From positions 29,711 to 62,871 of the forward strand of contig JBBDTI010000058.1 of NCBI GenBank assembly GCA_040904565.1: a DNA stretch of 33,161 nucleotides. The letters are read 5' to 3'. The position numbers and the translations under genes were made by a program. The stretch is from Rhodothermales bacterium. Its GTDB lineage: Bacteria; Bacteroidota; Rhodothermia; Rhodothermales; VXPQ01. Every line of letters starts with the position of its first letter. Position 1 is the first letter of the stretch. Positions 1 to 33,112 of this stretch are shown piece after piece. The notes beneath the pieces are model-generated. The model saw only the letters and a list, made by a program, of their open reading frames with translations, did not search any database and was not told the DNA's origin.

Positions 1-11
1 CGCGCCACTCG

Positions 12-1172
12 ATGGCCGTGCGCGTCCCGTCGATTATCGACGACGTGATCGAGCGGAACGCGGATTATCCACCCGAGATATCTGACGCTTTTCGACGACT
101 CCGGGACGAGATCGCGGGCGATGCGCCGCTGCGGCTCTTTGCGCTCCCGTCGCCGGACTTCGATCTCTGGCGGCCCCGGTTCGCCGTCCATACGGATGAG
201 TCCTGGCTCGACGCGGAATGGTTTTTTGCGGAAATGCTGGCCTACCGCCTGATGATGGAGGCGGGACGGTACTGGTCGACGCTCCGCGACCCGTTCGCGC
301 CCTTCAAGCGGGAGGAGCTGTCGTCCGAGGCCCTGTGGTCGCTGCTCGGCGAGGCGCTCGCGCTCGAGGGTCCGATCGAGGAACGCATCTACCGGATGTT
401 GCTGCTGAATCTGTGGGGTAACCGTATCGATCTGAGCCTGTCGAACGTGGCCGCAAAGGGTACGGGCGCCTCGCAGGAGCACCTGCTCGCCGACCATGCT
501 TCCCTCGCTGCGCGGCACCTGACGGGTGATCGGGGCGATGGCCCGGCGGGTGCTGCCGCGCGTGCATCCGGGATCCGCGAGCCGGGGACCGTGCACGTCA
601 TCATGGACAATGCGGGCACGGAGGAAGCCATGGACCTCGTCCTGGCGGACCTCCTGCTCCGTGAAGACCTCGCGGTGAACGTGGTTATGCACGTCAAGCA
701 GCTCCCCGTTCTGGTGAGCGACGTCATCACGGCGGACGTGCACGAGATGGTGGAGGCCATGAAGGCTCGAGGCGGCGAGGCGAGGCGTCTGGCCGGCCGG
801 CTCGATGGCTACCTGGAGTCCGGACGGCTGCGCCTCGTTCCCGATGCGTTCTGGAATACGGACGGGCGCCTGTGGGAGCTGCCGGCGCGTCTGGCCGATG
901 CGTTCGAGGGCGCGAGCCTCGTCATCGGGAAGGGTGATGTCAACTATCGGCGGGCTACCAACGACGCGCTCTGGCCGCTCGAGACGACACTGAAGGAAGC
1001 GGTAGGGACCTTCCCGGCACCGCTGCTGCTGCTGCGTACATTGAAGAGCGACACGCTCGTCGAGGTGGCTCCGGATCGCGCCGCGGCACTGGAGGCGGAC
1101 GAGCCGGACTGGCGCACGAACGGCTCGTACGGGGTGATCCAGTACGCATTCGGGCCGCCTGTCATTCGTTAA
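12..1172 (+). CDS. ARMT1/DUF89-family damage-control phosphatase (probably 5'-truncated by the window edge)
   Basis: Motifs WFFAE..YR, LWGNRIDLS, DNAGTE..MD, KGDVNYRR and RTLKSD match DUF89/ARMT1-like proteins. The frame is open upstream of ATG 12 to the window edge. Confidence 0.85.
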   Translation: MAVRVPSIIDDVIERNADYPPEISDAFRRLRDEIAGDAPLRLFALPSPDFDLWRPRFAVHTDESWLDAEWFFAEMLAYRLMMEAGRYWSTLRDPFAPFKREELSSEALWSLLGEALALEGPIEERIYRMLLLNLWGNRIDLSLSNVAAKGTGASQEHLLADHASLAARHLTGDRGDGPAGAAARASGIREPGTVHVIMDNAGTEEAMDLVLADLLLREDLAVNVVMHVKQLPVLVSDVITADVHEMVEAMKARGGEARRLAGRLDGYLESGRLRLVPDAFWNTDGRLWELPARLADAFEGASLVIGKGDVNYRRATNDALWPLETTLKEAVGTFPAPLLLLRTLKSDTLVEVAPDRAAALEADEPDWRTNGSYGVIQYAFGPPVIR

Positions 1173-1220
1173 GGCGGATTCGTATGCTGCTTGTGATTGC
1201 ACGTCTTATTATGGTGAAGG

Positions 1221-5910: not shown

Positions 5911-7329
5911 TCAGGGCGCCCCGTCGAACGGCCAATCTCCGGGGGCCGGGAAGTCCTGCGAAGCGTCGTCGACAACCAGCACCCAGTCATTGCCCCGCGC
6001 TCCTTCACCGGGTGGGTTGAACCGTACCGATCCCTTCTCGCCGAACCTGCCGATCTTGGCAGCGGCGCCGGTGCGAGGGTCGTACCACCACGCACGTGCA
6101 TCAGCGCCTGACAGCCCGGAAAGGTCGACTTCGAAGGGCCAGCCGTACGGCGTATACGCGATCAGGTAGCGCCCCTGCTCGTCGCGTGCGGCGCGGACGT
6201 GGCGGGCGCCGTCGGACGTCTGGGCGACGACGGACTGATCCGGCACGAGCGTCAGAAACGGGCGCGACAGGAACAGCTCCTTCATGAAGCCGACGTGGGC
6301 CGCGCCCGGATGCGTCAGGGCTTCGCTCCACGGCGTCCGCGCCGACGAGATCGGTTTCCGTCCCGGCTCCCACATCTGCCAGATGTTGTGGTTACCGTAG
6401 GTGTGTCCGGCCGCGCCCGCGAGAACCGACCAGTAGCCCGCCTGGCGCACGTCGAAGGCGTCGTACCATCCGCGCTCCGGGTCCCAGTTGATCGGATGGT
6501 CCTCGTAGCGCGGCTCGCCGTCGAGCACGGGCTTGACGGGCTCCAGGTCGTAGCCGGCGGCGGTGACCTCGTAATTCGGGTTGTCGGGTTCGCCGTGACC
6601 GGACTGGTAGAAGTTGAAGTCGAGCCACGAGTCCTCGTGGAACCACTCCCACGACTGCCGCCCGCCCGAGGGATGATACGTCATAAGCTGCGAGTCGCCG
6701 TGGCCGGATGCGATGCCCTCGGCCATGGCCCGAATGATCGCGAGATCTTCGTCGTCGCCCGGAATGCGGTCGCCGCCCAGGATCCAGATGACAGGGTCGT
6801 CGGCATAGCGCTCGCCGAGAAAGGTGCCGTAGGCGCGGGCGTTCTCCGGCGTGAACACCTCCGGACCCATGCCCCACATGAGGTTAAACTTGTCGCCCCA
6901 CGTCGGGAGCATGCCGACGAACATGCCGAGCGCTTCCGCCTTGTCGACGATGTAGTCGACGTGCTCGAAGTAGGCTTCGTCGGGTCGGCTCGGGTCGTCG
7001 ATCAGCGGCGTGTGGCCGTAGGGGTTCGGCGTGTGGAGTCCGTCCAGTTCGGCCAGCACGACGGCCTGGATCACGTTAAAGCCTTTGCGGGCCCGGTCCT
7101 CGAGGTAGCGGTCCGCCTCCTCGCGGTCGAGGCGGTGGAAGAGCTCCCAGGCCGTGTCGCCGAGCCAGAAGAACGGCTCGCCTTCGTTCGTCACGATTCG
7201 ACGGCCGTCTTCCGATACGGCGAGCGTGCCCTGCGCCTGCGCTGCGCCCATCCACCCGAAACAGAAAAGAGCCAGGGCGAGCCGGAGGGACCGGACGGGA
7301 AAAGTCTCGTGCTGTGGACGGGTTGTCAT
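5911..7329 (-). CDS. DUF4038 / glycoside hydrolase family 140 (apiosidase-like) with C-terminal putative collagen-binding domain
   Basis: Motifs PFFWLGDTAWELFHRL, KGFNVIQAV, LPTWGDK, WILGGD, QSGH, KPVLDGEPRYEDHP, GHTYG, WYDPRTG and NDWVLV. Signal peptide ends AQA. ATG 7329 preferred over TTG 7344. Confidence 0.85.
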   Translation of the reverse strand: MTTRPQHETFPVRSLRLALALFCFGWMGAAQAQGTLAVSEDGRRIVTNEGEPFFWLGDTAWELFHRLDREEADRYLEDRARKGFNVIQAVVLAELDGLHTPNPYGHTPLIDDPSRPDEAYFEHVDYIVDKAEALGMFVGMLPTWGDKFNLMWGMGPEVFTPENARAYGTFLGERYADDPVIWILGGDRIPGDDEDLAIIRAMAEGIASGHGDSQLMTYHPSGGRQSWEWFHEDSWLDFNFYQSGHGEPDNPNYEVTAAGYDLEPVKPVLDGEPRYEDHPINWDPERGWYDAFDVRQAGYWSVLAGAAGHTYGNHNIWQMWEPGRKPISSARTPWSEALTHPGAAHVGFMKELFLSRPFLTLVPDQSVVAQTSDGARHVRAARDEQGRYLIAYTPYGWPFEVDLSGLSGADARAWWYDPRTGAAAKIGRFGEKGSVRFNPPGEGARGNDWVLVVDDASQDFPAPGDWPFDGAP

Positions 7330-7358
7330 GGTGCGTCCTTCCAATTATTGTGGGATGC

Positions 7359-9029
7359 TTATCGGGCGTCGGCCCGCTCGAATGTAGACCTGACCTCCGC
7401 GCTCGGTGCATACCCGATTCGGTGCGCGATAGCCGACAGCGACGATCCCGCGGGCACGAAGACGGGACGCTCGTACACGTTCCAGGTCTCGTCGGAGCCG
7501 ATTCGATAGCCGATCGAGGCACCGTCCGTCGAAGACGACAGCCTCACGATGACGCCGCCCCGGGCAGGCGCGGCGTGGATCTCCGGATCCCGCGTGACGG
7601 GCTGCTCACCATACGGCGGATAGAGCATGTTCTTCAGCACCGGCTCCGGAATGAGTCCCATGTCGTCGATTTCGTCAAACCAGCGCTCCTGCTCGGCACG
7701 CAGCTCCAGGAGCTTGTCTCGATAGCGTGGATCGTCGGCCAGGTTGTTGATCTCGTGCGGGTCTTCCCGGGTGTCGTAGAGCTCCTGCAGCGGCTTGGTC
7801 TGCCGCAGCAGCTGCCAGTGACGCGTGTTGTCCAGGCCGCCCTCCCGAGCGAGCCGGTGAATCTCCTGCATCAGCGGCATCTGGTCGCGGTACGGGAGGA
7901 ACTGGATGTAGGGCCGCTCCGGCCGGTAATTTCGGATGTATTTGAAGCGGGCGTCACGGACGGCACGCCGGGTGTCCATGGCCGGATCCATGCGGTCCCG
8001 CGCGGCGTGGACGTAGCGGCGCTCTTCAGCTTCGGCCGGACCGAGAAAGGCCCGACCCTGGAGGTATTCGGGAATCGGAATGTTGGCGAGCGATAGCACG
8101 GTGGGCGCAAAATCGATGAAGCTGACGAGCCGGTCCTCCACCATGCCGGCCCGGTCCTGATGGGGGAAACGGACGATGAGGGGAACGTGGAGTCCGGAGT
8201 CGTAGACCCACCGTTTCGCACGCGGAAGGCCCGAACCGTGATCGCTGAAGTAGAAAATAATCGTCTCGTCGAGCAGGCCGTCATCCTCCAGTTCCTGGAG
8301 AACGCGGCCGACCATCGTATCCATCCGCGCGATGTTGTCGTAGTTGATGGCGATGTCTCGTCGTACGATCGGCGTGTCGGGATAGTACGGCGGCACCTGG
8401 ACCTCGTCCGGATCGGTCACCAGCGGCCGGTCGCTCTGGCCCCAGACCTGCGACTCGTGCGTGATGGTAAAGTTGACGACGGAGAAGAAAGGCATGTCCG
8501 GATCGGGCCGGTTGCGCCAGTGGGCATCCGGACTCGATTCGTCCCACACCGTAACCGGGGCGTTGAACTGGTAATCCTGTTTGGAATTGTTGGTCGTGTA
8601 GTATCCGTGGCGTCGGAGCAGTTCAGGAAAGAGGCGAAGCTCCGGGGGCGGTACGGCTTCGTACGTGGGAATCGCAAGGAGCTCGGGATCCGTCACCTCG
8701 TCGATCGAAGACGTGCGCGTCATCGTGCGCATGTGGTGCCCGCCGTACGAGCTGGGATACCGCCCCGTGATCAAGGCGGACCGGTTCGGGGCACAGACGC
8801 CGTAGACGCCGAAGGCGTGTGTGTAGCGGACTCCCTGCTCGGCCAGCCGATCGACGTGCGGCGTGCGGGCAACCGGGTCCCCATAGGCACCCAGCTGGGC
8901 GCTCATGTCTTCCGTCGTGATCCAGAGGATGTTCGGATGGACCGGTGCCTGCTGCGATGATGCCGCGCCGGGAAAGCAAGTGGCGAAAAGAAGGAGCGCG
9001 GCGAGCAGGTAGGCGAATCGAGTGTGCAT
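7359..9029 (-). CDS. Secreted Cys-type S1 sulfatase with C-terminal Fn3/chitobiase-like extension
   Basis: Motifs PNILWITTEDMS, CAPNR (CxPxR), SALITG.YP, SDHG.GLPRAKRWVYDSG and ELYD..EDPHEINNLA. C-terminal T.GASIGY...W..Y..P segment is typical of Fn3-associated tails. Confidence 0.9.
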   Translation of the reverse strand: MHTRFAYLLAALLLFATCFPGAASSQQAPVHPNILWITTEDMSAQLGAYGDPVARTPHVDRLAEQGVRYTHAFGVYGVCAPNRSALITGRYPSSYGGHHMRTMTRTSSIDEVTDPELLAIPTYEAVPPPELRLFPELLRRHGYYTTNNSKQDYQFNAPVTVWDESSPDAHWRNRPDPDMPFFSVVNFTITHESQVWGQSDRPLVTDPDEVQVPPYYPDTPIVRRDIAINYDNIARMDTMVGRVLQELEDDGLLDETIIFYFSDHGSGLPRAKRWVYDSGLHVPLIVRFPHQDRAGMVEDRLVSFIDFAPTVLSLANIPIPEYLQGRAFLGPAEAEERRYVHAARDRMDPAMDTRRAVRDARFKYIRNYRPERPYIQFLPYRDQMPLMQEIHRLAREGGLDNTRHWQLLRQTKPLQELYDTREDPHEINNLADDPRYRDKLLELRAEQERWFDEIDDMGLIPEPVLKNMLYPPYGEQPVTRDPEIHAAPARGGVIVRLSSSTDGASIGYRIGSDETWNVYERPVFVPAGSSLSAIAHRIGYAPSAEVRSTFERADAR

Positions 9030-17658: not shown

Positions 17659-19302
17659 ATGATCATGCGTACCGGTGCGCGTGCCGCGGTGTGGTCCCTG
17701 GCGGCGCTTGCTGTCTTCATGCTTGCCGCACGGCCCCCGGCAGCGCACGCCCAGGGGGACCAGTACAAGCGCTACGGGCTCGACGCCATGGCGAATATCG
17801 TCGATGGGGCGACCGACGAGGCGAAGGCGGATATGGCGCGCTATCTGGAGGCGTTTCCGAACGATCCGGAGTTTCTCTACGTGCTCGCCGTGGCGCACGC
17901 GCAGGAAGGAGACGTCGATGCGGCGTTCGAGTATGCCCGGCAGGCCGTCTCGGAGGGGCTGCCGGTCGGACGGCTCGTGGCCGGACCGCGCCGCCTCCTG
18001 GCCCCGCTGCACGACGACGATGCGTTTCAGGAGTGGGTGGACGGATTCGGAATGGAGGCAGAGCTCGTCCAGGGTCCGATGCTCGGCAGCGTGACGTCCG
18101 GTCGGATGAGCGTCTGGCTGCGGACGGCGACCGAGGTAACGGTAACGTTGGTCGTGACGGAAGGCGGGGAAGAAGCCGGTCGTCTGGATGGAGAGACGTC
18201 GGCGTCGGACGATTACACGACCGTGCTCTCGATCGGCGGCCTGGAGCCCGACACGGAGTATCGGTACGCGGTCGAAATCGACGGACGGCCCTATCCCGCG
18301 TCGTGGACCGTGCGATCGATGCCGGAAGAGGGAAGGCCCGCGCGATTCCGGATCGGGTTCGGAGGAGGAGCGGGCTATACGCCGTGGCACGAGCGGATCT
18401 GGACGACCATAGATCAGGAAGACTTTACGGCGTTTCTGATGATGGGAGATAACGTCTACCACGACCATCCCACGCGGCCCGACGTGCAGCTCTACACCTA
18501 TTATCGCCGGCAGTCCCGCCCCGAATTTCGGGCCTTCGCCGCCGAAACGCCGCTTTTCGCCATATGGGACGATCACGATTTCGGGGAGAACGACAGCTGG
18601 GGTGGTCCCGCGATCGACGAGCCGGACTGGAAGCCGTCCGTCTGGCAGGTCTTCAAGCAGAACTGGGCCAACCCTTCGTACGGAGGCGGTGAGGAACGGC
18701 CGGGCGTCTGGTTCGACTTCGCTATCGGCGACGTCGATTTTTTCATGCTCGACGGACGCTATTATCGGACCGATCCCAAGATCGACCGGCCGAGCATGCT
18801 CGGTCCCGCCCAGAAGGCGTGGCTCTTCGATCGCCTCTCGGAGTCGGATGCCACGTTCAAGGTCATCGTCTCCCCCGTACCCTGGGCTCCGGGAGCGAAA
18901 GGCGGCATGCAGATGACGCCCGAGGGGCCGCAGCCGGGTGGACTCGATACGTGGGACGGGTTTCCGGAGGAGCGGGACGAAATCTTCTCGTTTCTCGCCG
19001 CCAACGAGATCGACGGCGTCGTGCTGCTTTCCGCCGACCGGCATCGCTCCGACGCGTGGCGGATCGAGCGAGAGGACGGCTATGCGCTCTACGAGTTCGA
19101 GAGCTCGCAGCTGACGAACGTCCACACCCACGAGCTGATGGACGGCGCCCTGTTCGGGTATAACGAGAAGAACTCGTTCGGTCGGCTTACCTTCGACACG
19201 CAGGCCGAGGACCCCACCGTCACGTACGAGATCGTTTCCATCGACGGTGAAGCGGTGGCCGATATCACCGTACCCTTGAGCCGGCTCACGCACGGTGACT
19301 AG
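17659..19302 (+). CDS. Alkaline phosphatase D (PhoD)-like metallophosphatase with N-terminal TPR-like helical domain
   Basis: Motifs GPMLGSVT, GLEPDTEYRY (Fn3/PAP N-domain), GDNVY.D, WDDHDF..ND, LDGRYYR, MLG..QK.WL, DTWDGF and LSADRH. Sec-type signal ends AHA-Q. Confidence 0.85.
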   Translation: MIMRTGARAAVWSLAALAVFMLAARPPAAHAQGDQYKRYGLDAMANIVDGATDEAKADMARYLEAFPNDPEFLYVLAVAHAQEGDVDAAFEYARQAVSEGLPVGRLVAGPRRLLAPLHDDDAFQEWVDGFGMEAELVQGPMLGSVTSGRMSVWLRTATEVTVTLVVTEGGEEAGRLDGETSASDDYTTVLSIGGLEPDTEYRYAVEIDGRPYPASWTVRSMPEEGRPARFRIGFGGGAGYTPWHERIWTTIDQEDFTAFLMMGDNVYHDHPTRPDVQLYTYYRRQSRPEFRAFAAETPLFAIWDDHDFGENDSWGGPAIDEPDWKPSVWQVFKQNWANPSYGGGEERPGVWFDFAIGDVDFFMLDGRYYRTDPKIDRPSMLGPAQKAWLFDRLSESDATFKVIVSPVPWAPGAKGGMQMTPEGPQPGGLDTWDGFPEERDEIFSFLAANEIDGVVLLSADRHRSDAWRIEREDGYALYEFESSQLTNVHTHELMDGALFGYNEKNSFGRLTFDTQAEDPTVTYEIVSIDGEAVADITVPLSRLTHGD

Positions 19303-19363
19303 CGAGGCGCCTGCTCCCTTCATGCTTTCTGCACGTCTACTCACACGGCTCGGCCGCTTCCAA

Positions 19364-20965
19364 ATGATGACACGCACGCTTTCCTCTGCGCTCGTGACGG
19401 TTCTCGTCGTCGCGAACCTGTCATGTAGAAATGCCGGAGACATCCACGCCGGATCGACGCTTTCCGTGACGGTGGTCGACACGTCTGAGGGGCACACGTC
19501 GGCCCGCGTGAAGCTTATCGACACGGAGGGTCACGCCGCGCCGCTGCCCGAGGAGGCCGTCGCCGTGATGTATGGAATGTGGGATCACGCGGACGGTTAC
19601 GGCTATCAGCCCGACAGTTCGTTCTACGTCGATGGGTACTTCGAACTCGATCTACCGGACGGAACGTATTATCTGGAGATCACGAAGGGCAACGAATTCG
19701 TCGAGATCCGCGACACGCTCCGGGTTGACGGCGCCGTCGAACGCCAGTACCGTCTGGAGCGGTGGATCGATACCGCTTCGATGGGGTGGTATTCGGCCGA
19801 CGACCACATCCACATTCGCCGTTCGCCGCGCGAGGATCCGCTGCTGCACGTCTGGACCTCGGCGGAAGATATCCGTGTCGGCAACATGCTCCGCATGGGC
19901 GATTTCTGGGCGACGTACTACGCCCAGTACGCCTTCGGAGCGGATGGCGTCTATGAGCAAGATGGATATCTGCTGCTCTCGGGACAGGAAGACCCGCGTA
20001 CGCCCGAGCTGGGGCACGTGATCGGACTTGGCGCTTCCGAGTTTATTCGCTTTCCGAATCGCTATTATCTCTACGACCTCGTTTTCGACGGACTGCGCGC
20101 GTCAGGCGGCCTGGGCGGCTATGCACACCAGGCGGAGACCTTTCACGGCTACCGTGGACTCACACTGGATGGCCTGCGGGAAAAAGTCGATCTGGTCGAG
20201 ATCGTCCAGTTCTGTGCACCGGGCGGTCCGCTCATCACCGAGCATTATTACCATCTGCTCGATCTCGGCTTTCCGCTGACCGCAACCGCCGGATCCGATT
20301 TTCCGTGGTGCGGGAAGCCCCACGACGGCTCCGCCGAGATCCCCGTACACGAGCAGGCCCGTATCGGTAACGCCCGCTTCTACGCCTACCTGGGAGACGA
20401 CGGGCTGACGTATGCGAACTGGATGGACGCCGTACGCGCCGGACGGACGTTCGCCACGAGCGGCCCGGTGCTGTTGCTCGAAGTAGACGGTCGTAAACCG
20501 GGAGCGGCCATAGACCTTCCGGAAAGCGGCCCGGTAACGATCGAGGCGACCGCACGCGGACACGCGGCCGGCATCCCGCTCGCATCTATCGAGATCGTCG
20601 CACACGGTACGGTGATCGCCTCGGCGTCGGCAGACGATCCCGATCAATCTACGGAGCGGCTCCGGATTCGAACGTCACTCGAGGTCGAGGAAGGCGTGTG
20701 GATTGCCGCGCGCGCCACGGCCGGATCCATGCAGGTTGCCCATACGACGCCGGTCTATGTCACGGTCGACGGGGGCGGATTTCACAACCGGGCCGCCCTG
20801 AATCGTCTCCTGGATCGATCGGAGACGTACCTGGCCGACGTCGACAGCGTCAGCAGCGAGCCGCATCACGGCGTCGGAGAACATGCCTGGCGCTACCGCG
20901 ACGGACTCATGGAACGCGTCGAGGCGGCACGTGAGGTTCTGGATCACCTGCGCGAGGCGCACTGA
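19364..20965 (+). CDS. CehA/McbA-like PHP-fold metallohydrolase, possible lipoprotein
   Basis: Motifs GWYSADDHIH (HxH), GQE, GHV, YAH, AGSDFPW, W...VRAGRTFATSGP and AHTTPVYV. NLSC follows a hydrophobic stretch. Start uncertain (GTG 19295 or ATG 19364). Confidence 0.72.
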   Translation: MMTRTLSSALVTVLVVANLSCRNAGDIHAGSTLSVTVVDTSEGHTSARVKLIDTEGHAAPLPEEAVAVMYGMWDHADGYGYQPDSSFYVDGYFELDLPDGTYYLEITKGNEFVEIRDTLRVDGAVERQYRLERWIDTASMGWYSADDHIHIRRSPREDPLLHVWTSAEDIRVGNMLRMGDFWATYYAQYAFGADGVYEQDGYLLLSGQEDPRTPELGHVIGLGASEFIRFPNRYYLYDLVFDGLRASGGLGGYAHQAETFHGYRGLTLDGLREKVDLVEIVQFCAPGGPLITEHYYHLLDLGFPLTATAGSDFPWCGKPHDGSAEIPVHEQARIGNARFYAYLGDDGLTYANWMDAVRAGRTFATSGPVLLLEVDGRKPGAAIDLPESGPVTIEATARGHAAGIPLASIEIVAHGTVIASASADDPDQSTERLRIRTSLEVEEGVWIAARATAGSMQVAHTTPVYVTVDGGGFHNRAALNRLLDRSETYLADVDSVSSEPHHGVGEHAWRYRDGLMERVEAAREVLDHLREAH

Positions 20966-25530: not shown

Positions 25531-26840
25531 CGATTCGCCGACTCACCCTTGTCGCCGTTTTCATTGCCGGGGCTATCCTGCTGCAGGCTTGTGCCGAGGA
25601 GCGGACGCCTATCGTCTTCAATCCCAATACGAGCTGGTGCTGGTTTCAGGACGAGCGGGCGATCATCGATGGCGGACAGCTGCTGCTTGCCGGCGTGAGC
25701 ACGGAGGGCGACGTAACCGTCACCGCGTACGATCTGGAAACCGGCGAGCGGTCCGTCCACGTGCTCCGGGACACGCTGCAGGCGAACGATCACGCCGTGC
25801 CCGCGCTGTTCGCTCGCCCCGACGGGCGCTATCTGGCGGCGTACTCTCGCCACAATGGCGACTACTCGTTCTGGCGCATCTCCGAAGCGCCGGGCGACGT
25901 AACGCGCTGGCGGCCCGAGCGGCGGTTCGATCACGGGGCGCGGGTGACGTACTCGAACCTGTATGGCATGGCGGCGGAAGGTCCGGCCGGACGTATCTAT
26001 AACTTCACGCGTACGCGGCACTGGGATCCGAATTTCGTCGTGTCCGACGACCAGGGCGAGAGCTGGGCGTACGGCGGACGGCTCATCGACGGCGGCGGCA
26101 GCGAGCAGCGGCCGTATGTGCGATACGCGGGAAACGGCATCGACGCCATCCATTTTATCACCACCGAGGGACATCCCCGTGATTTCGCGAACAGTGTGTA
26201 TCACGGTTACGTCCACGATGGTCGGTCGTATCGCAGTGACGGCACCCTGGTCGACGAAAATATTTTTGACGAGGAGGCGCCGCCCGCGCATGCGTTTACG
26301 CGTGTTTTCTCTGGAGATGAGAACAATGTCGCGTGGACGAGCGACATCGAGCTCGATGGAGACGGACGCCCCTACATCGCCTACTCCGTGACGAAGGATC
26401 GGATCGAACCCGAGCGTGGAGGAATGGATCACCGGTATCGATACGCGAGGTGGGATGGAGCGGCCTGGCACGACGAAGAGATTGCTTACGCCGGCACGCG
26501 CCTGTACGAAGGAGAGGATGCCTATACGGGATTGATCGCCCTTCATCCGTCGACACCGGACGTCGTATATATTTCCACCGACGTCGATCCGGTAGGCGGC
26601 GAGCCGATACGGGTCGACGGCGTGCGACGCTACGAAATATTCAGAGGCGAAACGGAGGATGGCGGTGCGACGTGGACCTGGGAGACGGTAACCGCCGAGT
26701 CCCCGGAAGACAATCTCCGTCCCATCGTCGCCGCGAGCGATCGGGCGTGGGCCGTCGTGTGGCTCCGCGGCACCTATCGCTCCTACACGGATTACGATCA
26801 GGCTGCGGTCGGATTCGTCTACCACGAGCTGCCCGAGTAG
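25527..26840 (+). CDS. BNR-4/Asp-box repeat beta-propeller lipoprotein
   Basis: GTG 25527 overlaps the uxaC stop (GTGA). Lipobox LQAC. Motifs WCWFQDERA, NDHAVPAL, TYSN, Asp-boxes SDDQGESW and TEDGGATW, RPYVRY, HPR and DNLRP. Confidence 0.75.
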   Translation: MTIRRLTLVAVFIAGAILLQACAEERTPIVFNPNTSWCWFQDERAIIDGGQLLLAGVSTEGDVTVTAYDLETGERSVHVLRDTLQANDHAVPALFARPDGRYLAAYSRHNGDYSFWRISEAPGDVTRWRPERRFDHGARVTYSNLYGMAAEGPAGRIYNFTRTRHWDPNFVVSDDQGESWAYGGRLIDGGGSEQRPYVRYAGNGIDAIHFITTEGHPRDFANSVYHGYVHDGRSYRSDGTLVDENIFDEEAPPAHAFTRVFSGDENNVAWTSDIELDGDGRPYIAYSVTKDRIEPERGGMDHRYRYARWDGAAWHDEEIAYAGTRLYEGEDAYTGLIALHPSTPDVVYISTDVDPVGGEPIRVDGVRRYEIFRGETEDGGATWTWETVTAESPEDNLRPIVAASDRAWAVVWLRGTYRSYTDYDQAAVGFVYHELPE

Positions 26841-26872
26841 ACGTCCGGCCGATGCCTTCCGTCGGTTGACCG

Positions 26873-26903
26873 CGTGCGATTCATTGCGTACACGTGCGAT
26901 TCA
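26873..26903 (+). repeat. 11-bp direct repeat CGTGCGATTCA, 20-bp period
   Basis: Identical copies at 26873-26883 and 26893-26903, upstream of blaI. Confidence 0.6.
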
Positions 26904-26982
26904 CCACACCGCTCGCACGTTTGCCGAAACCCCGGTATTCCTCCTGCGTCTGCAAGTACGTCAGACTCTTTCAGGAAATTTC

Positions 26983-27017
26983 ATGCAAAATATTTTACAT
27001 AGCCGTACGTTACGGCT
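26983..27017. promoter_or_regulatory. Candidate BlaI-family operator region
   Basis: Near-perfect 18-bp palindrome ATGCAAAATATTTTACAT (26983-27000, one mismatched pair), followed directly by AGCCGTA-cgt-TACGGCT (27001-27017). AT-rich patch just upstream of the repressor gene. Confidence 0.6.
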
Positions 27018-27038
27018 GGCCTAAGGATAAAAACGAGT

Positions 27039-27455
27039 GTGACGATGGTGAACGACCTGCTTCACTTGCATCTGAGTAGACGCGAGAGCCAGATCATGGA
27101 CGTGCTGTTCCGTCTCGGCGAGGCGAGCGTCTCTGACGTGGTTGCAGGCATGCCGGACGATCCATCGTACAATACGGTCCGGGTAACGCTCGGCATCCTG
27201 GAGAACAAGGGGTACGTTCGCCATCGGGAGGAGGGGCCGCGTTACCTCTACTCGCCGGCGCAATCGCTCGAGCAGGTGAAGCGATCCGCTACGCGGCATC
27301 TGCTTCAAACGTTTTACGAGGGGTCGCCCTCTCGCGCGATCCTGAGTCTGCTGGGTATGTCGGCGAAGGCGCTGAGCGAGGAAGACCTGGACGAGATCGC
27401 CGGTTGGATCGAGGCGGCCAGGGAACGGGCGGAACGAACCAACGAGACGAATTAA
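27039..27455 (+). CDS. BlaI/MecI/CopY-family transcriptional repressor
   Basis: Motifs LSRRESQIMDVL, PSYNTVRVTLGILENKGYV.H..EG.RYLY.P and LLQTFYEGS. Lies directly upstream of an M56 peptidase. Confidence 0.93.
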   Translation: MTMVNDLLHLHLSRRESQIMDVLFRLGEASVSDVVAGMPDDPSYNTVRVTLGILENKGYVRHREEGPRYLYSPAQSLEQVKRSATRHLLQTFYEGSPSRAILSLLGMSAKALSEEDLDEIAGWIEAARERAERTNETN

Positions 27456-27465
27456 CTTTCCGGGA

Positions 27466-29703
27466 ATGGAGATACTGCCATCCTATACCGCGTTTGTTAC
27501 CTACGGCGTCTCGCTTTTTTTGAAGGCGAGCGTCATCCTGGCGGCAGCATGGTTCCTCTCCGGGGCGCTTCGACGGCGTTCCGCGGGCCTCCGGCACGTG
27601 CTCTGGAGCACGGCGTTTGCGGCGATTCTGGTGCTGCCGCTGGTTTCGGCATGGATGCCCGCGATCGAAGTCGACGTCTCACACTTCGAGACATTAAAGC
27701 AGCGCGTCCTTACCACGTCTAAGACGGTAAGCGGAAACGCCGTCGAAATGCCTATCGCCACCGGTGATGGCACGAGCCGGCTCGTCGAAACGCCCGTGCG
27801 GCAGTCCGATATCGAAGACGAGGTCGCGGCCGTTCCCGTACGATCGAGGAACGGTGTGGTCTATGCCTTTTTCGTCTGGCTCGCGGGTGGGGTTGGACTC
27901 GCGGCCGTGTTTCTGATTCATCTGGCGCGGATTCGCAGCGTAACGAGAAATGCCGTCTCCAAACAGTGTATCGATCAGGTGGCGGCGGCGGTGTGGACTG
28001 AGATTGGGCATGTGCGGGAGACGCGTGTTCTGGTTGGCCAGGTCGAGATGCCGGTTACCTGGGGACTGTTTCGCCCCGTAGTCCTCCTGCCCGTCGAGGC
28101 GATCGAATGGGACGAGCGCAGACTGCGCATGGTGCTTATGCACGAACTGGCCCACATTCGCAGGAGGGACTACCTGCCGCACCTCATCGCTGAACTTTCC
28201 TGCATCGCTTACTGGCCGAACCCGCTCGTCTGGGTCGCTCGGCACCGGCTGCGTGCCGAGCAGGAGCTGGCGTGCGACGACGTCGTGCTTCGCGCAGGAA
28301 CGGCTTCGCATGATTATGCCGCATTGCTTCTCGACGTCGCGCAGTCCGTCTCCGGCCGCGAATTGCTGCCTGGCGGCATCAGTATGGCGGAGCGCAAGGG
28401 GCTGAAGGCACGTATCCGGTCGATTCTCGATCCGGAAGTGGATCGCCGTGCCGTTTCCGTCGCTGCGTTCGCAGTCATACTCCTTGTCGTTGCCGTTCCC
28501 GCGCTGCCGATGGCGGCGCTTCGTTCCGTGGACGCGGCGCAGGACGGTAGCGAGGAGCGGGATCCGTCCGCTTCACGTGTAACGGATGCGTCTGTGGAGC
28601 CGGGCGAATCGTCCGGCTCGGATCCGTTCGAGGATGGCTCGGAACGCTCCGGCACATTCCCAAACCCCGCCGATCCGTTGCATGATTCGCTGTCAGATGC
28701 CTCGCGCGGTTCTGTTCCCGAGGCGGCGTTTACGCTTACCGCGGAGGCCGAGAGAGGCCGTATCGTCGAGCCCATGACGGTTCGCAACGATGAGCGGGCC
28801 TCCGGCGGCCGATATGTGGTCGTGCCGGACGGCCCCGGCAACGATCCCCCCGAAGGCGGTCCGGGGCGCGTTGAATTCGACGTCGATCTGAAAGAGGCTG
28901 CCGGTCGTGCCGTCTGGGCGCGGGTAATCGGTGACAGGCATAATGATAATTCGTTCTACGTGTCCGTCGACGGCGGTGGAGCATTCCGATGGGATCTCGT
29001 AGATCCGAAGGATGGGGACACGATCGATGAGTGGACGTGGTTGATGGTGGCCGATCGTTCCGGTAAACCGCTGCAGCTCGAATCCGGCGTTCATGCGCTG
29101 ACCTTCCGGAATCGAGAAGACGGAAGCCGCCTCGATGCCGTATTCGTAACGAGCGATCCCGACCTGGTCCCGAGAGGACGTTCGCCGCTCCCTCCGCCGG
29201 CGCGAACGGTTTCGTACGCCGTCGAGGCCGAATCCCCGGCCGAGATCGTGCCCCCGTTCGAGGTTCGTACCGAAGAGAATGCGTCCGGCCGGTACTTCGT
29301 CTCCGTAGCTGACGGATACGTAAGCCGGGGCGAGCCCCCCGTGGATGGACGCCTCTCGTATCCCGTCGAGGTGCCCGAAGGAGGGCGTTTCGTCGTGTGG
29401 GCCCGTGCCATGGGGCCCGATAGCGACGAGGATTCTTTCTGGATCCGCGCAAATGAGGAGGATTGGGTACGGTGGAACGGTATCGAGGATGACGATGAGT
29501 GGGAATGGCAGCTGGTGCATGACTCAGATGACGGTGGAGAGATTGCCGTATTCCCCCTTCGCGCCGGCAGTAACGTGATTCAACTTGCCTACCGGGAGGA
29601 CAACGCGCGTCTCGACCGGATCGTCATTACAAACAATGTATACCAGCACCCCGCTACCGGCCGAAATCATGCCTCCGGCGTTTCCGTGACCTTTCGAGAA
29701 TAG
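27466..29703 (+). CDS. M56 (BlaR1/MecR1-like) membrane metallopeptidase with two tandem C-terminal carbohydrate-binding-like beta-sandwich domains
   Basis: N-terminal TMs (RRRSAGLRH.LW), P.TWG.FRPVVLLP, zinc motif HELAH (28141-28155), EQELACDD.V, YA..LL and LKARIRSIL. These are followed by a TM helix, an S/E/P linker and two ~150-aa repeats beginning AEAE/VEAE. Confidence 0.88.
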   Translation: MEILPSYTAFVTYGVSLFLKASVILAAAWFLSGALRRRSAGLRHVLWSTAFAAILVLPLVSAWMPAIEVDVSHFETLKQRVLTTSKTVSGNAVEMPIATGDGTSRLVETPVRQSDIEDEVAAVPVRSRNGVVYAFFVWLAGGVGLAAVFLIHLARIRSVTRNAVSKQCIDQVAAAVWTEIGHVRETRVLVGQVEMPVTWGLFRPVVLLPVEAIEWDERRLRMVLMHELAHIRRRDYLPHLIAELSCIAYWPNPLVWVARHRLRAEQELACDDVVLRAGTASHDYAALLLDVAQSVSGRELLPGGISMAERKGLKARIRSILDPEVDRRAVSVAAFAVILLVVAVPALPMAALRSVDAAQDGSEERDPSASRVTDASVEPGESSGSDPFEDGSERSGTFPNPADPLHDSLSDASRGSVPEAAFTLTAEAERGRIVEPMTVRNDERASGGRYVVVPDGPGNDPPEGGPGRVEFDVDLKEAAGRAVWARVIGDRHNDNSFYVSVDGGGAFRWDLVDPKDGDTIDEWTWLMVADRSGKPLQLESGVHALTFRNREDGSRLDAVFVTSDPDLVPRGRSPLPPPARTVSYAVEAESPAEIVPPFEVRTEENASGRYFVSVADGYVSRGEPPVDGRLSYPVEVPEGGRFVVWARAMGPDSDEDSFWIRANEEDWVRWNGIEDDDEWEWQLVHDSDDGGEIAVFPLRAGSNVIQLAYREDNARLDRIVITNNVYQHPATGRNHASGVSVTFRE

Positions 29704-29721
29704 TCCCAAGCCATAGATTCA

Positions 29722-31023
29722 ATGAGTGGATTTTTCACTATGCCTTCGTGCAAAATTCTTTACAGAGGCATCGTTCAATGCGCCGCTGTGCTGGCCTGTA
29801 CCGCGTTGTGGTGGAGCGTGGTAGGTTCGACGCCGGCGTCCGGTCAGGCGATGGAGGGTGCACCGGAGCGACTCGCTATCTTTCTTGATTGCGGCTGGTG
29901 CAATCAGACGTTCATTCGGCAGGAGATGACCTACGTCGACTACGTGCGAGACCGGGAGGGGGCCGACGTGCACGTCCTCGTGACGGACGTGAATACGGCC
30001 GCCGGTGGGGAGGCCTTTACGTTCGACCTCATCGGTCGGGGTGTCTTCCAAGGGATGGACCATACGGCCCAGTTTACATCCGAGGCGGGCGCTACGCAGG
30101 ATCAGGAGCGCCGCGGGTTCTTACGGACGCTGCAGGTGGCCCTGGCTCCATACCTCATCCATACGTCGGTGGGCCCGCGTCTCGCACTCCAAGTCGGCGA
30201 CGGGAACGGATCGGTAGATACGCAGCCTGCAGACGATCCGTGGAATAACTGGACGTTCGAAGTGTACGGCGACGCATGGGCGAACTTCGAATCGTCCCAG
30301 CAGTCCTTGCGCGCGCGTTACGGCCTATCTGCCGAGCGAGTCACGGAGGAGTGGAAGATTCGGCTCAGACCATTCTTCAATTACAACTTCGACGAGTTCG
30401 AGCGGAACGATGAGACGATAACGAGCACCTCGCGACGTGACGGGTTCGACGCCTACGTGGTCAAGAGCCTGGGTCCGCACTGGTCGGCGGGCCTCTTCGG
30501 AGACGTATACACGTCGACGTTCAGCAATATCGACCTGCGGTATCGAGGCATGCCGGCGGTCGAGTACAGCGTATTCCCCTATCGTGAAGCGACGCGACGG
30601 CAGCTGACCTTCACCTATCGCGTCGGAGGAATTCACGTCACGTACGCCGATACGACGATCTTCAACGAGATTTCCGAGGTATTGCCCGAGCACGCCTTCA
30701 ATGCGGCCTACGAAGTGACGCAGCCGTGGGGAGAGATCGACATCGGCGTCGAGGTCTCGCAGTATCTCCACGACACAAGCAAGTACAGCGCCGAATTCGG
30801 GGGCGACGTCGAAGTGCGTATCACGCGAGGGCTCTCCGTCGAGTTCGGTGGCGACGTCGAGTGGATCAAGAACCAGCTGAACCTGCCCAAAGGGGATGCC
30901 AGTCTGGACGAGGTGCTCCTGCGGCGGCGCCAGCTGGCGACGAACTACGAATTGAGTTTTCAGTTCGGGTTCAACTATCGCTTCGGATCCATCTACAACA
31001 ACGTGGTCAACACACGCTTCTGA
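29722..31023 (+). CDS. Conserved hypothetical exported protein, probable outer-membrane beta-barrel
   Basis: Signal-peptide-like N-terminus; N-domain FLDCGWC...YVRDR..ADVHVLVT; then DDPWNNWTF and many alternating aromatic amphipathic strands; ends FGFNYRFGSIYNNVVNTRF with C-terminal Phe. Start uncertain (29722 or 29740). Confidence 0.65.
   Translation: MSGFFTMPSCKILYRGIVQCAAVLACTALWWSVVGSTPASGQAMEGAPERLAIFLDCGWCNQTFIRQEMTYVDYVRDREGADVHVLVTDVNTAAGGEAFTFDLIGRGVFQGMDHTAQFTSEAGATQDQERRGFLRTLQVALAPYLIHTSVGPRLALQVGDGNGSVDTQPADDPWNNWTFEVYGDAWANFESSQQSLRARYGLSAERVTEEWKIRLRPFFNYNFDEFERNDETITSTSRRDGFDAYVVKSLGPHWSAGLFGDVYTSTFSNIDLRYRGMPAVEYSVFPYREATRRQLTFTYRVGGIHVTYADTTIFNEISEVLPEHAFNAAYEVTQPWGEIDIGVEVSQYLHDTSKYSAEFGGDVEVRITRGLSVEFGGDVEWIKNQLNLPKGDASLDEVLLRRRQLATNYELSFQFGFNYRFGSIYNNVVNTRF
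29749..29764. promoter_or_regulatory. Second copy of the candidate BlaI operator
   Basis: TGCAAAATTCTTTACA matches TGCAAAATATTTTACA (26984-26999) at 14/16. Flanked by complementary TGCCT (29741-29745) and AGGCA (29766-29770). Confidence 0.5.
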
Positions 31024-31041
31024 GCGGGCCGAGCCCGGTCA
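31021..31041. terminator. Short hairpin between convergent genes (possible weak terminator)
   Basis: TGA-g-CGGGC-cga-GCCCG-g-TCA spans both stop codons; no U tract. Confidence 0.25.
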
Positions 31042-31407
31042 CTCACTTACGCCCGCGTTGCGGAGCCAGTCGCGGACGGCGTGCTCGGGCAGCGCTCCGA
31101 CGAATTCGTCGGCGACCTCGCCGTCGACGAACAGTTTAACGGCCGGAATTCCTCGAACGCCGTAACGCCGCGCGAATTCGGGATATTTGTCCGTGTTGAT
31201 TTTAACGAGACGCCACGAACCCCCGGCCTCCCTGGCCATTTTTTCGAGGGTCGGTCCCAGTACCCGGCAGGGGCCGCACCACGGCGCCCAGAAATCGACG
31301 AGAACGGGCTTGTTGAAGCTCTTCTCGATGACGTCCTTTTGGAACCGGTCGGCCGTATTCGAAGAGGTTGAAGCATTCGAGGAGAACGTATCGCTATTAT
31401 TCGACAT
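31039..31407 (-). CDS. trxA: Thioredoxin
   Basis: Motifs PVLVDFWAPWCGPC and YGVRGIPAVKLF.DG. Overlaps the end of sulP by 11 nt. Confidence 0.88.
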   Translation of the reverse strand: MSNNSDTFSSNASTSSNTADRFQKDVIEKSFNKPVLVDFWAPWCGPCRVLGPTLEKMAREAGGSWRLVKINTDKYPEFARRYGVRGIPAVKLFVDGEVADEFVGALPEHAVRDWLRNAGVSE

Positions 31408-33112
31408 GCGTGGGTTCCTCTTTCTGTTGGGGTTGGTCGGAAGATGAGTCGAAAAACGTGTCTGCGGCTTCGACGGCCTCGTGCACCTCGTAGAAGAAAT
31501 GCTCGCGGCCGATGAGATCGGCGATACCCGCGCGCTCGAGCACGTCGAATACGGGACCCTTTACGCCCGCAAAATATACGCCGACACCGCGTCGACGAAG
31601 TTCGAGGAGGCTCTCCCTGAGCGCATGCGCCGCCGTCGAATCGATCGTGTTCACCGGATAGGCATCGATCACGAGGGCCTTGACGTCATGGTCCGGCCGA
31701 GCAATCTCGCCCAGCCGCTCCTTCAAATAATCGGTGTTTGCAAAATAGTACGAGGCATCCATTCGCAAGATCACCGTGCCCGAGGTGACGAGCGCCTCGG
31801 GGTGGCGATCTACGTTCCGATACGTCATCGTGCCCGGAAGGCGGCCCATCACGGCCGTATGCGGCCGCACACTCTGATGGACGACTGAAACGAGCGAGGC
31901 CACAACCCCCACGAGAATGCCCTGCTCGATGCCGAGCGCGAGCGTGGCTGCGAACGTAATCAGCAGGAGCGTAAGGTCGCGCCGGTCGACCTTCCAGAGA
32001 AACGCCATCTCTTTCCAGTCGAACAGGCCGGATACGGCAACCATGACGATGGCCGCCAGCACGGCGTTGGGCAGATAGTAAAAGAGTGGCGTCAGCACCA
32101 GCAGCGTCAGCGCGATAATGGCCGCGCTCACGACGGCGGCTGCGTTGGTCTGCGCGCCTGCCTCCGCGTTGACGGCCGTGCGGGAAAACCCACCGGTCGT
32201 GGGATAGGCCCTGAAAAATGCTCCGACCACGTTGGCGAGGCCCAATCCGATCAACTCCTGATTGGCGTCGAGCCGGTAACGTCCTCGGCTCGCGTACACC
32301 TTGGCGACGGCGATGGACTCCATGAAGCCGACGAGCGAGATGACCAGTGCCGTGGGAAGCAGCGCGAGGACGTGCTCGAGCGATACGGAAGGTACGATGA
32401 ACCCGGGGAGTCCTTCCGGTACGGTACCGACCACGCGTACGCCCATCGTTTCCAGCCCCCAAACAGCGGTTACCAGTGTAGCCGCGCCAACTACGAGCAG
32501 CGCTCCCGGAAACGATCGTCGCCACCGACGGACCAGCACCAGCGCCGCGATGCTCGCCAGCCCGATCAGCAGCGTGGGAAGGTGGATGGTGCCCGCCTGC
32601 GCCGCGGCACTCGCGATGATGTCATGCACGAAATGAGACCGGTCGATCGAAATGCCGAGCAGGTGATTGAGCTGGCTGAAGCCGATGATCAGTGCGGCTG
32701 CGGACGTGAAGCCTGCCAGCACCGGATGCGAGAGAAAGTTCACCAGGAAGCCGAAGCGCGCCATGCCGAGGATGAACTGTATGAGTCCGACCATCAGCGT
32801 CAGGAGGAGCGTGAGCGCGATGTACTCCTCCGGGCCGGCCGCGATCGGTCCGACACCCGCGGCGACCAGCAGCGACACCATCGCGACGGGTCCGACGGCG
32901 AGCTGCCTCGACGTGCCGAGAAAGGCGTACACGATGAGAGGCATCAGTGAAGCATACAGCCCGTAGATCGGAGGCAGTCCGGCAATCAGGGCATACGCCA
33001 TGCCCTGTGGAATAAGCATGACGCCGACCGTCAACCCCGCCGTCAGGTCACCTTTCAGCCGGTCGCCGTCGTAGTCCCTCAGCTGCCCTAAAAGCGGAAT
33101 GTGTGCGCGCAC
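31397..33112 (-). CDS. sulP: SulP/SLC26-family anion permease with C-terminal STAS domain
   Basis: Motifs GDLTAGLTVGVMLIPQGMAYA, GLPP.YGLY, GTSRQLAVGPVA, NQELIGLG.AN and GGFSRTAVN; STAS segment YFAN...IDSTA. Confidence 0.93.
   Translation of the reverse strand: MRAHIPLLGQLRDYDGDRLKGDLTAGLTVGVMLIPQGMAYALIAGLPPIYGLYASLMPLIVYAFLGTSRQLAVGPVAMVSLLVAAGVGPIAAGPEEYIALTLLLTLMVGLIQFILGMARFGFLVNFLSHPVLAGFTSAAALIIGFSQLNHLLGISIDRSHFVHDIIASAAAQAGTIHLPTLLIGLASIAALVLVRRWRRSFPGALLVVGAATLVTAVWGLETMGVRVVGTVPEGLPGFIVPSVSLEHVLALLPTALVISLVGFMESIAVAKVYASRGRYRLDANQELIGLGLANVVGAFFRAYPTTGGFSRTAVNAEAGAQTNAAAVVSAAIIALTLLVLTPLFYYLPNAVLAAIVMVAVSGLFDWKEMAFLWKVDRRDLTLLLITFAATLALGIEQGILVGVVASLVSVVHQSVRPHTAVMGRLPGTMTYRNVDRHPEALVTSGTVILRMDASYYFANTDYLKERLGEIARPDHDVKALVIDAYPVNTIDSTAAHALRESLLELRRRGVGVYFAGVKGPVFDVLERAGIADLIGREHFFYEVHEAVEAADTFFDSSSDQPQQKEEPTHVE

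Follow-up and report, generated by a model that had tools for sequence, protein, structure and literature searches.

A BlaI/M56 repressor-protease pair with tandem carbohydrate-binding-like sensor repeats and its predicted outer-membrane barrel target in a Rhodothermales bacterium

Here, we describe a 33,161-nt stretch of DNA from a Rhodothermales bacterium (assembly GCA_040904565.1, contig JBBDTI010000058.1; the whole stretch is hereafter called the window), at the 3' end of which open reading frame (ORF) calls place three tightly spaced genes in one orientation. They encode a BlaI-like repressor, a membrane zinc protease of the M56 (BlaR1-type) family and an outer-membrane barrel protein. 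We lean towards reading this triad as a self-contained proteolytic derepression switch of the BlaI/BlaR1 type, in which the barrel gene would be the target and a carbohydrate the most likely ligand. The predicted wiring of repressor and protease to the barrel gene is well supported by comparative evidence. Our computations establish the domain make-up and folds of the proteins and the uniqueness of two 16-bp boxes in the genome, together with the conservation and synteny of these boxes in relatives, while DNA binding, repressor cleavage, the nature of the ligand and the cargo of the barrel are what we infer. The three genes and the two boxes are as follows:

26984..26999, no strand: operator-like palindrome 1, TGCAAAATATTTTACA, 39 nt upstream of the blaI GTG at 27039
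27039..27455, + strand: blaI-like gene for a BlaI/MecI-family winged-helix repressor, 138 aa, GTG start, alternative ATG at 27045
27466..29703, + strand: M56 gene, whole ORF, 745 aa
29722..31023, + strand: outer-membrane barrel gene of a DUF481-like family, 433 aa, alternative start ATG at 29740
29749..29764, no strand: operator-like palindrome 2, TGCAAAATTCTTTACA, over codons 4-9 counted from the barrel ATG at 29740

In the circuit that we propose, a dimer of the BlaI-like protein would sit on the two 16-bp palindromes, with box 1, before blaI-M56, serving autoregulation and box 2, across the first codons of the DUF481-like 12-strand barrel gene, repressing expression of that gene. The M56 zinc-protease module would lie on the cytoplasmic side, between transmembrane segments (TM) 3 and 4, and two jelly rolls of the carbohydrate-binding module (CBM) types CBM35 and CBM6 would be exposed to the periplasm in place of a penicillin-binding domain. 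Binding of a periplasmic ligand, most likely a carbohydrate such as an oligosaccharide or an envelope glycan, would activate the protease and lead to inactivation of the repressor, the loss of which would yield more of the switch proteins and more barrel.

The gene calls agree with a preliminary description of this DNA, made from the sequence letters, which had listed three co-oriented genes with gaps of 10 nt (blaI-M56) and 18 nt (M56-barrel, counted from 29722). The second gap widens to 36 nt if the barrel gene starts at 29740, which we consider the more likely start because it gives the protein the shape expected of a signal peptide and because the homologue L010 has its sole in-frame starts just before the box. 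The region listed in the same description opens at 26983, which is not the start of blaI; the ATG there begins a 13-codon frame overlapping the palindrome at 26984-26999. Both the BlaI (PF03965) gene and the M56 gene are single in the genome, whose 4.02-Mb assembly is 94.9% complete.

We derived the consensus of the 16-bp box, TGYAAA-N4-TTTRCA, by comparing the regions upstream of blaI in relatives. The window contains two matches compared to an expected 0.04, and two or more were found in none of 100 shuffled sequences. These two, both in the triad, are also the only matches in the whole assembly, where a reversed-pattern control gave none. Similar palindromes stand upstream of blaI in the relatives L009, L025, L189, L191, L192 and L194, and the box at the start of the barrel gene is kept in place in L010 (right after the ATG), L025, L189, L190 and L194; L189 has both boxes, and L193 has degenerate copies at both places. 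In L192, where a gene for a TolC-like OEP (7068-8738, minus strand) replaces the barrel gene after the M56 gene, the box covers the first codons of the replacement. Moreover, the paired boxes share a local flavour, reading TGCAAA..TTTACA in the window, TGAAAA..TTTTCA in L025 and TGTAAA..TTTACA in L194 at both sites each. Across the loci compared here that encode an M56 protein with CBM-like repeats (M56-CBM), the 5'-end box is present at seven of the eight followed by an outer-membrane gene, with the degenerate copy of L193 in addition, and a second box is present at none of the three without such a gene (L191, L195, L196).

To what extent the box reaches beyond these loci was addressed with a position-weight scan of 105 barrel-family loci lacking M56-CBM, which gave three weak matches near 5' ends (eight in 1.13 Mb). 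Since the box is thus essentially absent at unlinked barrel genes, we gave up the notion that BlaI regulates all members of the barrel family in trans. Where barrel paralogues adjoin members of other BlaI subfamilies, blaI is preceded by 16-bp palindromes of a different sequence, in many cases doubled. The boxes also bear on the simplest objection to our reading, according to which the genes are neighbours by chance, the barrel serves as a constitutive housekeeping protein and the palindromes do not act as operators. The solitary position of most barrel-family members would suit this view. The genome's only two box sites both lie in the triad, however, and box position and local flavour are kept in diverged relatives whose barrels are 44-66% identical, which makes coincidence highly improbable.

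Gene order in relatives points in the same direction as the boxes. We compared 12 M56-CBM loci (the window, L009, L010, L025 and L189-L196), 11 of which have downstream sequence, and found an outer-membrane gene after M56-CBM in eight of the 11. Seven of these genes belong to the barrel family (window, L010, L025 (partial), L189, L190, L193 and L194), and one encodes the TolC-like OEP of L192. The CBM-like repeat was matched in 15 of 200 other genomes of the same order. Among 12 regions fetched from same-order genomes, eight hold M56-CBM (L189-L196), with a barrel gene directly after it in four (L189, L190, L193, L194). Barrel identity to the window protein declines from 66% in L010 to 62% in L190, 60% in L189 and 44-45% in L193 and L194, and the identity of the M56 C-terminal part falls in step, from ~62% down to ~35%. 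As a control set, we used 80 metagenomic M56 loci that were found by M56-module patterns and mostly hold unrelated M56 proteins. Where 450 nt or more of upstream sequence is available (68 loci), BlaI precedes M56 in all but one (67). Where the downstream sequence reaches 1300 nt or more (42 loci), a barrel gene follows in just two, which are also the only ones of these 42 to carry CBM-like repeats. Over the loci sampled here, a survey of the neighbourhood of the blaI-M56-barrel triad, which the preliminary description had put forward as a check, finds both synteny and paired boxes recurring in relatives, and its central proposal, a BlaI/M56 relay without a beta-lactam sensor that is wired to a barrel, gains support from the two unique boxes, the recurring pairing and the synteny.

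Links between the two gene groups extend beyond the order. In a phylum sample of 300 other genomes, the barrel family occurs in 74 and M56 in 150. BlaI and M56 genes lie within 5 kb of the barrel gene in eight of 100 phylum loci (four of 74 genomes, two genera), and three arrangements are seen in these eight: blaI-M56-barrel, blaI-barrel-M56 and divergent. Their M56 proteins end in ankyrin, in TonB_C plus CarboxypepD_reg or in unassigned C-termini, and not in CBM-like repeats. One genus has two BlaI/M56/barrel cassettes of different gene order; in L169, L176 and L181, blaI and M56 flank the barrel gene. In another genome, an ankyrin-tailed M56 and an M56 with TonB_C plus CarboxypepD_reg each adjoin a barrel paralogue. 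Besides L169, L176 and L181, the eight loci comprise L167, L172 and L173, L157, and L128. In a FastTree phylogeny of 111 barrels (midpoint root, long branches flagged), for which the supports given are Shimodaira-Hasegawa-like (SH-like) only, the five CBM-linked barrels fall in one 28-row clade (support 95) together with 23 unlinked rows, the six linked barrels of one genus form their own clade (99), and two from G215 lie in a third (99). As the BlaI/M56-linked barrels thus occupy separate clades, the link is found at no fewer than three points of the family tree.

The recurring association also raises the question of whether the barrel could be part of the sensor, instead of or besides being its output, in a FecA/FecR-like manner, with its N-terminal domain reporting barrel occupancy to the M56 ectodomain. 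A conserved periplasmic domain of ~100 aa that has no known relative would be a fitting messenger, the barrel gene adjoins BlaI-M56 in three gene orders, one of them with the barrel gene in the middle, and M56-TonB_C fusions exist in the same phylum, both in our sample and in the literature (PMC10350073). Yet most family members by far have no M56 neighbour, and the domain is just as well conserved in them; the box over the start of the barrel gene, moreover, marks it as a regulated target. In addition, the M56 ectodomains beside barrel paralogues are mutually unrelated, which argues against one conserved contact. A complex prediction for the M56 ectodomain with the barrel N-domain scored 0.04 against a mark of 0.32, which gives no answer either way. 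We consider a sensory barrel unlikely.

The proteins themselves fit the proposed switch. The BlaI-like protein matches PF03965 over residues 12-125 (E 2.8e-25, 89.3 bits compared to a cut-off of 22.6). It stays under the NCBIfam equivalog cut-offs for BlaI and for CopY (the latter TIGR02698, 35.9 bits compared to 121.95), and its 138 aa include no cysteine, so that the C-terminal metal site of the CopY type is missing; a CopY-like metal repressor was rejected on this basis. The site at which BlaI is cleaved by its cognate M56 protease is known only in staphylococcal proteins.

Within the M56 protein, we distinguish four parts:

27466..28506, + strand: M56 (BlaR1-type) membrane zinc-protease module with four TM, HELAH at residue 226 and E.ACD at residue 267
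28507..28737, + strand: acidic low-complexity periplasmic linker, residues ~348-424, poorly conserved in alignment A3
28738..29166, + strand: sensor repeat 1, CBM35-like jelly roll, residues 425-567, by structural comparison
29197..29643, + strand: sensor repeat 2, CBM6 / GH115-C-terminal-like jelly roll, residues 578-726, by structural comparison

The protease half is a regular member of its family (PF05569, E 3.9e-29, 102.2 bits compared to a cut-off of 31, residues 19-319), and its profile matches the BlaR1 structure 8exs with E 2.7e-6. HELAH and E.ACD, both of which the preliminary description had reported as retained, are invariant in alignment A3. According to hydropathy analysis, the hydrophobic segments span residues 9-27, 42-71, 131-149 and 329-347, and the loops rich in Lys and Arg span residues 33-45 and 154-335, which gives a topology of the BlaR1 type, in which TM3 and TM4 flank the protease and the sensor follows TM4. 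The linker that follows is markedly acidic, with 18 Asp and Glu compared to five Lys and Arg in residues 356-430. Past about residue 345, no Pfam or NCBIfam family is matched, a penicillin-binding domain included, and the NCBIfam model blaR1_generic aligns over its profile positions 105-323 of 585 only, the protease half (86.5 bits compared to a cut-off of 400). This result, together with the CBM-type fold of the C-terminal part, bears out the initial observation that the protein has no recognisable BlaR1/MecR1 penicillin-binding domain. Beta-lactam sensing was rejected because that domain is absent; the pair is thus an M56/BlaI pair but not a BlaR1, the defining sensor feature of which is lacking.

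For the region after the linker, we modelled residues 425-745 with AlphaFold2 and obtained a confident structure of two all-beta domains (pLDDT 90.7, pTM 0.83), as anticipated from the two homologous beta-sandwich-like repeats noticed at first sight. In structural comparison, sensor repeat 1 (model residues 1-142) is closest to CBM35 modules (3zm8, Z 16.1, root-mean-square deviation 2.1 Å over 119 aa), with further CBM35-type matches to 7byv (Z 14.8), 2wz8 (Z 14.6) and 2vzp (Z 14.4). Sensor repeat 2 (model residues 154-302) is closest to GH115 C-terminal and CBM6 domains (4zmh, Z 14.4; 8j3x, 14.2; 2cdo, 13.8). In an exhaustive structural comparison, the first 20 rows consist almost entirely of CBM6/35/36 modules and of enzymes containing them, and Foldseek is concordant (2cdp and 2wz8, TM-score 0.72-0.74 by target). 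The check by AlphaFold and Foldseek proposed for residues ~420-745 hence returned carbohydrate-binding-type jelly rolls, in line with the expectation. We place both repeats in one fold family on the indirect evidence of their structural matches and of a repeated motif spacing in alignment A1. As a statement about the fold of the model, 'tandem carbohydrate-binding-like sensor' is right; the original claim of a glycan sensor stands at this fold level only, where both comparisons favour CBM35/CBM6, and glycan sensing by the M56 ectodomain is plausible given the predicted structure.

The company that the repeat keeps elsewhere is compatible with such a function. A search with residues 425-745 returned 51 proteins, 29 of them M56 proteins (724-992 aa) and 22 non-M56. 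The latter, for which Pfam assignments come from the search listing and from our own scans of P0034, P0037 and P0041, carry right-handed beta-helix, CBM6, CBM35, CBM96, PKD and GH115_C families. Secreted proteins share the repeat family, with beta-helix, CBM6, CBM35, CBM96 and GH115_C domains. Relatives with three repeats do exceed the PF17829 (GH115_C) cut-off (P0012, 51.5 bits). The M56 heads vary among relatives (P0010, P0012-P0031), as most of the ~840-aa forms have three CBM-like repeats in the alignment A1 consensus and one 992-aa relative has HEAT repeats inserted between the protease and the CBM-like repeats.

The third protein of the triad divides into two folded parts in the predicted model:

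29869..30159, + strand: N-terminal alpha/beta domain with an invariant C..C pair, about residues 50-146
30250..30978, + strand: 12-strand barrel, residues 177-419

The model (pLDDT 72.9) shows a signal-peptide-like helix, the alpha/beta domain of ~100 aa, 12 strands and a C-terminal Phe. The sequence has one N-terminal hydrophobic segment (residues 16-34) and ends in ...NTRF. A signal peptide, an even number of strands (12), a C-terminal aromatic residue and Z-scores of 13-14 to solved barrels of 12-14 strands together identify an outer-membrane barrel, whose role as a channel is suggested by the modelled fold. Foldseek ranks the copper channel PcoB first (7pge, E 2e-5, TM-score 0.57 by target). 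In the structural comparison, CymA, NalP, TamA, OmpG, NanC, Tsx and KdgM are tied at Z 13-14.1 and PcoB reaches Z 11.4; because so many small outer-membrane channels tie in score, the fold names no substrate.

No Pfam or NCBIfam family is matched by the barrel protein itself, and a homologue with 60% identity (P0157) exceeds the cut-off of PF04338 (DUF481; 26.1 bits compared to 21.1). DUF481-like clusters of the Atlas align to the barrel at TM-scores of 0.91-0.92, and its setting there consists of 'hypothetical' and DUF481-like clusters, which are commonest in Gemmatimonadota and Bacteroidota. The family is very large: a word-indexed search gave 3466 matches, many at 58-67% identity and the named ones mostly from Gemmatimonadota metagenome bins, and an exhaustive profile search gave 3048, 2305 and 1102 representative clusters at E <= 1e-3, 1e-10 and 1e-30, respectively. 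The genome itself has three full copies. In the N-terminal domain, C57 and C60 (FLDC..C motif) are invariant in 40 sequences, and an Atlas search with this domain alone gave no named match, the domain being seen only in the barrel family.

Several observations weigh against the switch as we read it. At the level of the wiring, no outer-membrane gene follows M56-CBM in three of the 11 loci (L191, L195, L196), 92 of the 100 phylum barrel loci are unlinked to BlaI/M56, and so are the 15 closest orthologues in the phylum sample (55-60% identity) and all eight loci from other phyla. Binding of the boxes by the BlaI-like protein, and hence their presumed role, is deduced from position, palindromy, uniqueness and conservation only. 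At the level of the ligand, the sensor repeats reach no CBM cut-off in Pfam (PF17829 GH115_C, 17.7 bits compared to 24.1, E 0.0033), their profile match to the CBM35 structure 2wz8 is weak (E 0.0083), and a CBM fold does not by itself show sugar binding. Finally, the genes that recur next to the barrel family hint less at sugars than at metals or redox chemistry. In 35 of the 100 phylum barrel loci (for example L113, L116 and L117), the gene immediately before the barrel gene, in the same orientation, encodes a ZIP transporter, although these 35 are not independent, most of them belonging to a single bacterial family and to another paralogue clade. A gene for an AhpC/TSA redoxin lies downstream in 16 of the 100, and the genome's own barrel paralogue (L108, G000:C84:62849-74021) follows a P-type ATPase gene.

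These neighbours, together with the C..C pair and the PcoB match, keep a metal or redox role in play. The same relay with the same target may therefore respond to a signal other than a glycan, with the jelly rolls acting as a generic periplasmic scaffold that binds a metal ion or a protein or picks up a redox or envelope-stress cue, and with the barrel serving metal or envelope homeostasis. Beyond the neighbours, PcoB is the best Foldseek match of the barrel, the cysteine pair of the N-domain is invariant, the M56 partners of barrel paralogues elsewhere bear domains other than CBMs, and the copper repressor CopY belongs to the BlaI family, to which the weak NCBIfam match of our repressor relates. 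Against this, PcoB scores below CymA, OmpG, NanC, Tsx and KdgM in structural comparison, the cysteine-free repressor has no CopY-type metal site, and the ZIP adjacency is nearly confined to the one family and clade mentioned above. Both sensor repeats, furthermore, are far closer to genuine CBM35/CBM6 modules than to other folds, and the other hosts of the repeat family resemble polysaccharide enzymes. On balance, we regard a non-glycan signal as possible but doubtful, and we continue to favour the carbohydrate-responsive switch.

By Pfam, the window encodes, upstream of the triad, a PQQ dehydrogenase, three sulfatases, an enolase-superfamily enzyme, a GH140-like apiosidase, two GntP permeases, a gluconolactonase, an IlvD/Edd dehydratase, a DHDPS-like aldolase, a PhoD-like protein, the TRAP components DctP and DctM, UxaC and a BNR_4 protein. 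Two long ORFs of this catabolic island have no Pfam match and a coding-like GC content at third codon positions (GC3): 19295-20965 (+ strand, 556 aa) and 3-1202 (- strand, 400 aa). The preliminary description had tied the triad to this island of 25 kb, and the corresponding reading makes it the dedicated regulator and entry channel for sulfated glycans and sugar acids. The triad does adjoin UxaC, the TRAP and GntP transporters, the sulfatases, the GH140-like gene and the BNR_4 gene; its sensor fold is CBM35/GH115_C-like; NanC and KdgM, which are 12-strand porins for acidic oligosaccharides, are among the tied top matches of the barrel; and the Pfam scan found no regulator besides BlaI within the window (a small ORF between DctP and DctM excluded).

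The remaining evidence speaks against this connection. The box has no match inside the island, nor anywhere else in the genome outside the triad, and in relatives, the seven loci whose flanks could be read (L189, L191-L196) have no CAZyme or sulfatase neighbours. Their flanking genes encode kinases, aminotransferases, a GDSL lipase, a histidine kinase, a hydantoinase, Na/Ca exchangers and the like. The island also runs at least 20 kb upstream of the window on the same contig (L201, G000:C58:9800-29710), where we found a GMC oxidoreductase, a TonB-dependent receptor, a 3-keto-disaccharide hydrolase, a fucose-isomerase-like gene, an FGGY kinase, an aldolase, an SSF symporter and a LytTR response regulator. 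The early statement that the island shows no other regulator and no SusC/D accordingly holds inside the window and fails in the 20 kb before it, given the LytTR response regulator and the TonB-dependent receptor there. Because of the missing island boxes, the unrelated flanks in relatives and this upstream pair, control of the adjacent sugar-acid/sulfatase island by the triad is not supported; the tie proposed at the outset falls with it, and we rate a dedicated island regulator as very unlikely.

BlaR1 and MecR1 are the textbook antibiotic sensors, and staphylococcal operators carry TACA/TGTA dyads as opposed to the TGYAAA-N4-TTTRCA box found here. The triad resembles BlaR1/BlaI and MecR1/MecI in having a PF03965 repressor beside a PF05569 zinc protease with four TM, HExxH and an extracytoplasmic C-terminal sensor. 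In the canonical systems of Staphylococcus and Bacillus, sensing of a beta-lactam leads to proteolytic inactivation of the repressor (PMC7593790); as in BlaR1/BlaI, palindromic operators would precede both the regulator operon and the target gene. The differences concern sensor and output, with two CBM35/CBM6-like jelly rolls in place of the domain resembling a class-D beta-lactamase or penicillin-binding protein (PBP), and with an outer-membrane barrel as the predicted target in place of a beta-lactamase or PBP2a. Since the host is diderm, the sensor would in addition be periplasmic.

Other systems share single features with the triad. Atypical BlaIR pairs of M. tuberculosis and M. abscessus and PvmSR of P. 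aeruginosa are described in a preprint as not responding to beta-lactams and as controlling other functions (bioRxiv 10.64898/2026.08.03.742534). According to the same preprint, their BlaR homologues have no ectodomain, unlike the large and well-folded tandem ectodomain predicted here, and the triad differs from them further in a predicted regulon of just two sites. M56-TonB_C fusions of Bacteroides (TonB1, TonB10) and relatives are called functionally uncharacterised in PMC10350073. They are similar in combining M56 with non-PBP periplasmic domains in the same phylum-level setting, and one adjoins a barrel paralogue (L128); they differ in that the ectodomain consists of TonB_C and CarboxypepD_reg, and no link to the barrel family has been reported for them. 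RsgI/SigI of Clostridium thermocellum are described as membrane sensors with CBM-type ectodomains in which regulated proteolysis switches genes on (PMC10328401, PMC6852018); unlike the triad, they form an anti-sigma/sigma pair of a monoderm that relies on autoproteolysis and RseP, has cellulosome targets and involves neither M56 nor BlaI. The predicted 12-strand barrel, lastly, matches small channels of 12-14 strands (NanC/KdgM, OmpG, CymA, Tsx and PcoB) at Z 11-14 and resembles clusters named after DUF481 (PF04338), though its own sequence matches no Pfam family; it differs from them in the additional conserved N-terminal C..C domain. Our literature search, from which most subscription journals were out of scope, found no paper on an M56 protein with a CBM-like head or on BlaI control of a DUF481-like barrel.

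In 10.64898/2026.08.03.742534 and PMC10350073, M56/BlaI pairs without a PBP domain are called uncharacterised or of unknown signal. The locus thus addresses a wider question, namely which signals are read by the many non-PBP relatives of BlaR1 and MecR1. It makes a clean test case, with one repressor, one protease, two operator-like sites genome-wide, an ectodomain that can be produced separately and a single predicted target. Should the ligand be a carbohydrate, this would be a fourth glycan-sensing architecture besides hybrid two-component systems, SusR-type regulators and sigma/anti-sigma pairs, and the proposed control, if true, would open a first way into a very large family of outer-membrane proteins that has no name as yet. 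A broader and more speculative view, which we put forward tentatively and hold to be rather doubtful, is that BlaI-M56 works as a plug-in sensor module with interchangeable periplasmic heads (CBM-like, ankyrin, TonB_C), coupled several times over to a single family of small barrels, and that the barrel in our locus admits the sensed oligosaccharide, closing a self-amplifying glycan-sensing loop across the envelope. Such a loop would need neither TonB nor a sigma/anti-sigma pair, would have a regulon of two operators and would be a counterpart of Sus-type and FecARI-type circuits.

Around the triad, a thioredoxin gene and a SulP/STAS transporter gene (both by Pfam) follow on its 3' side on the other strand. 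Base composition is even across the window (GC content 0.60-0.67), with no compositional break that would mark the triad as foreign DNA. The locus, which comes from an uncultured sediment bacterium, is present in four public DNA sequencing runs, all from one sediment-metagenome study, with no RNA run listed. A sigma-70 promoter and terminator scan of 26700-31500, using a model that does not cover promoters of the Bacteroidota type, returned nothing near either box. Between the BNR_4 gene and the blaI box, the 11-nt sequence CGTGCGATTCA is directly repeated, at 26873-26883 and 26893-26903, 20 nt apart. Box 1 is immediately followed, ahead of the blaI start, by a perfect inverted repeat (27001-27017; AGCCGTA-CGT-TACGGCT), which could be a second protein site or a hairpin in the 5' untranslated region.

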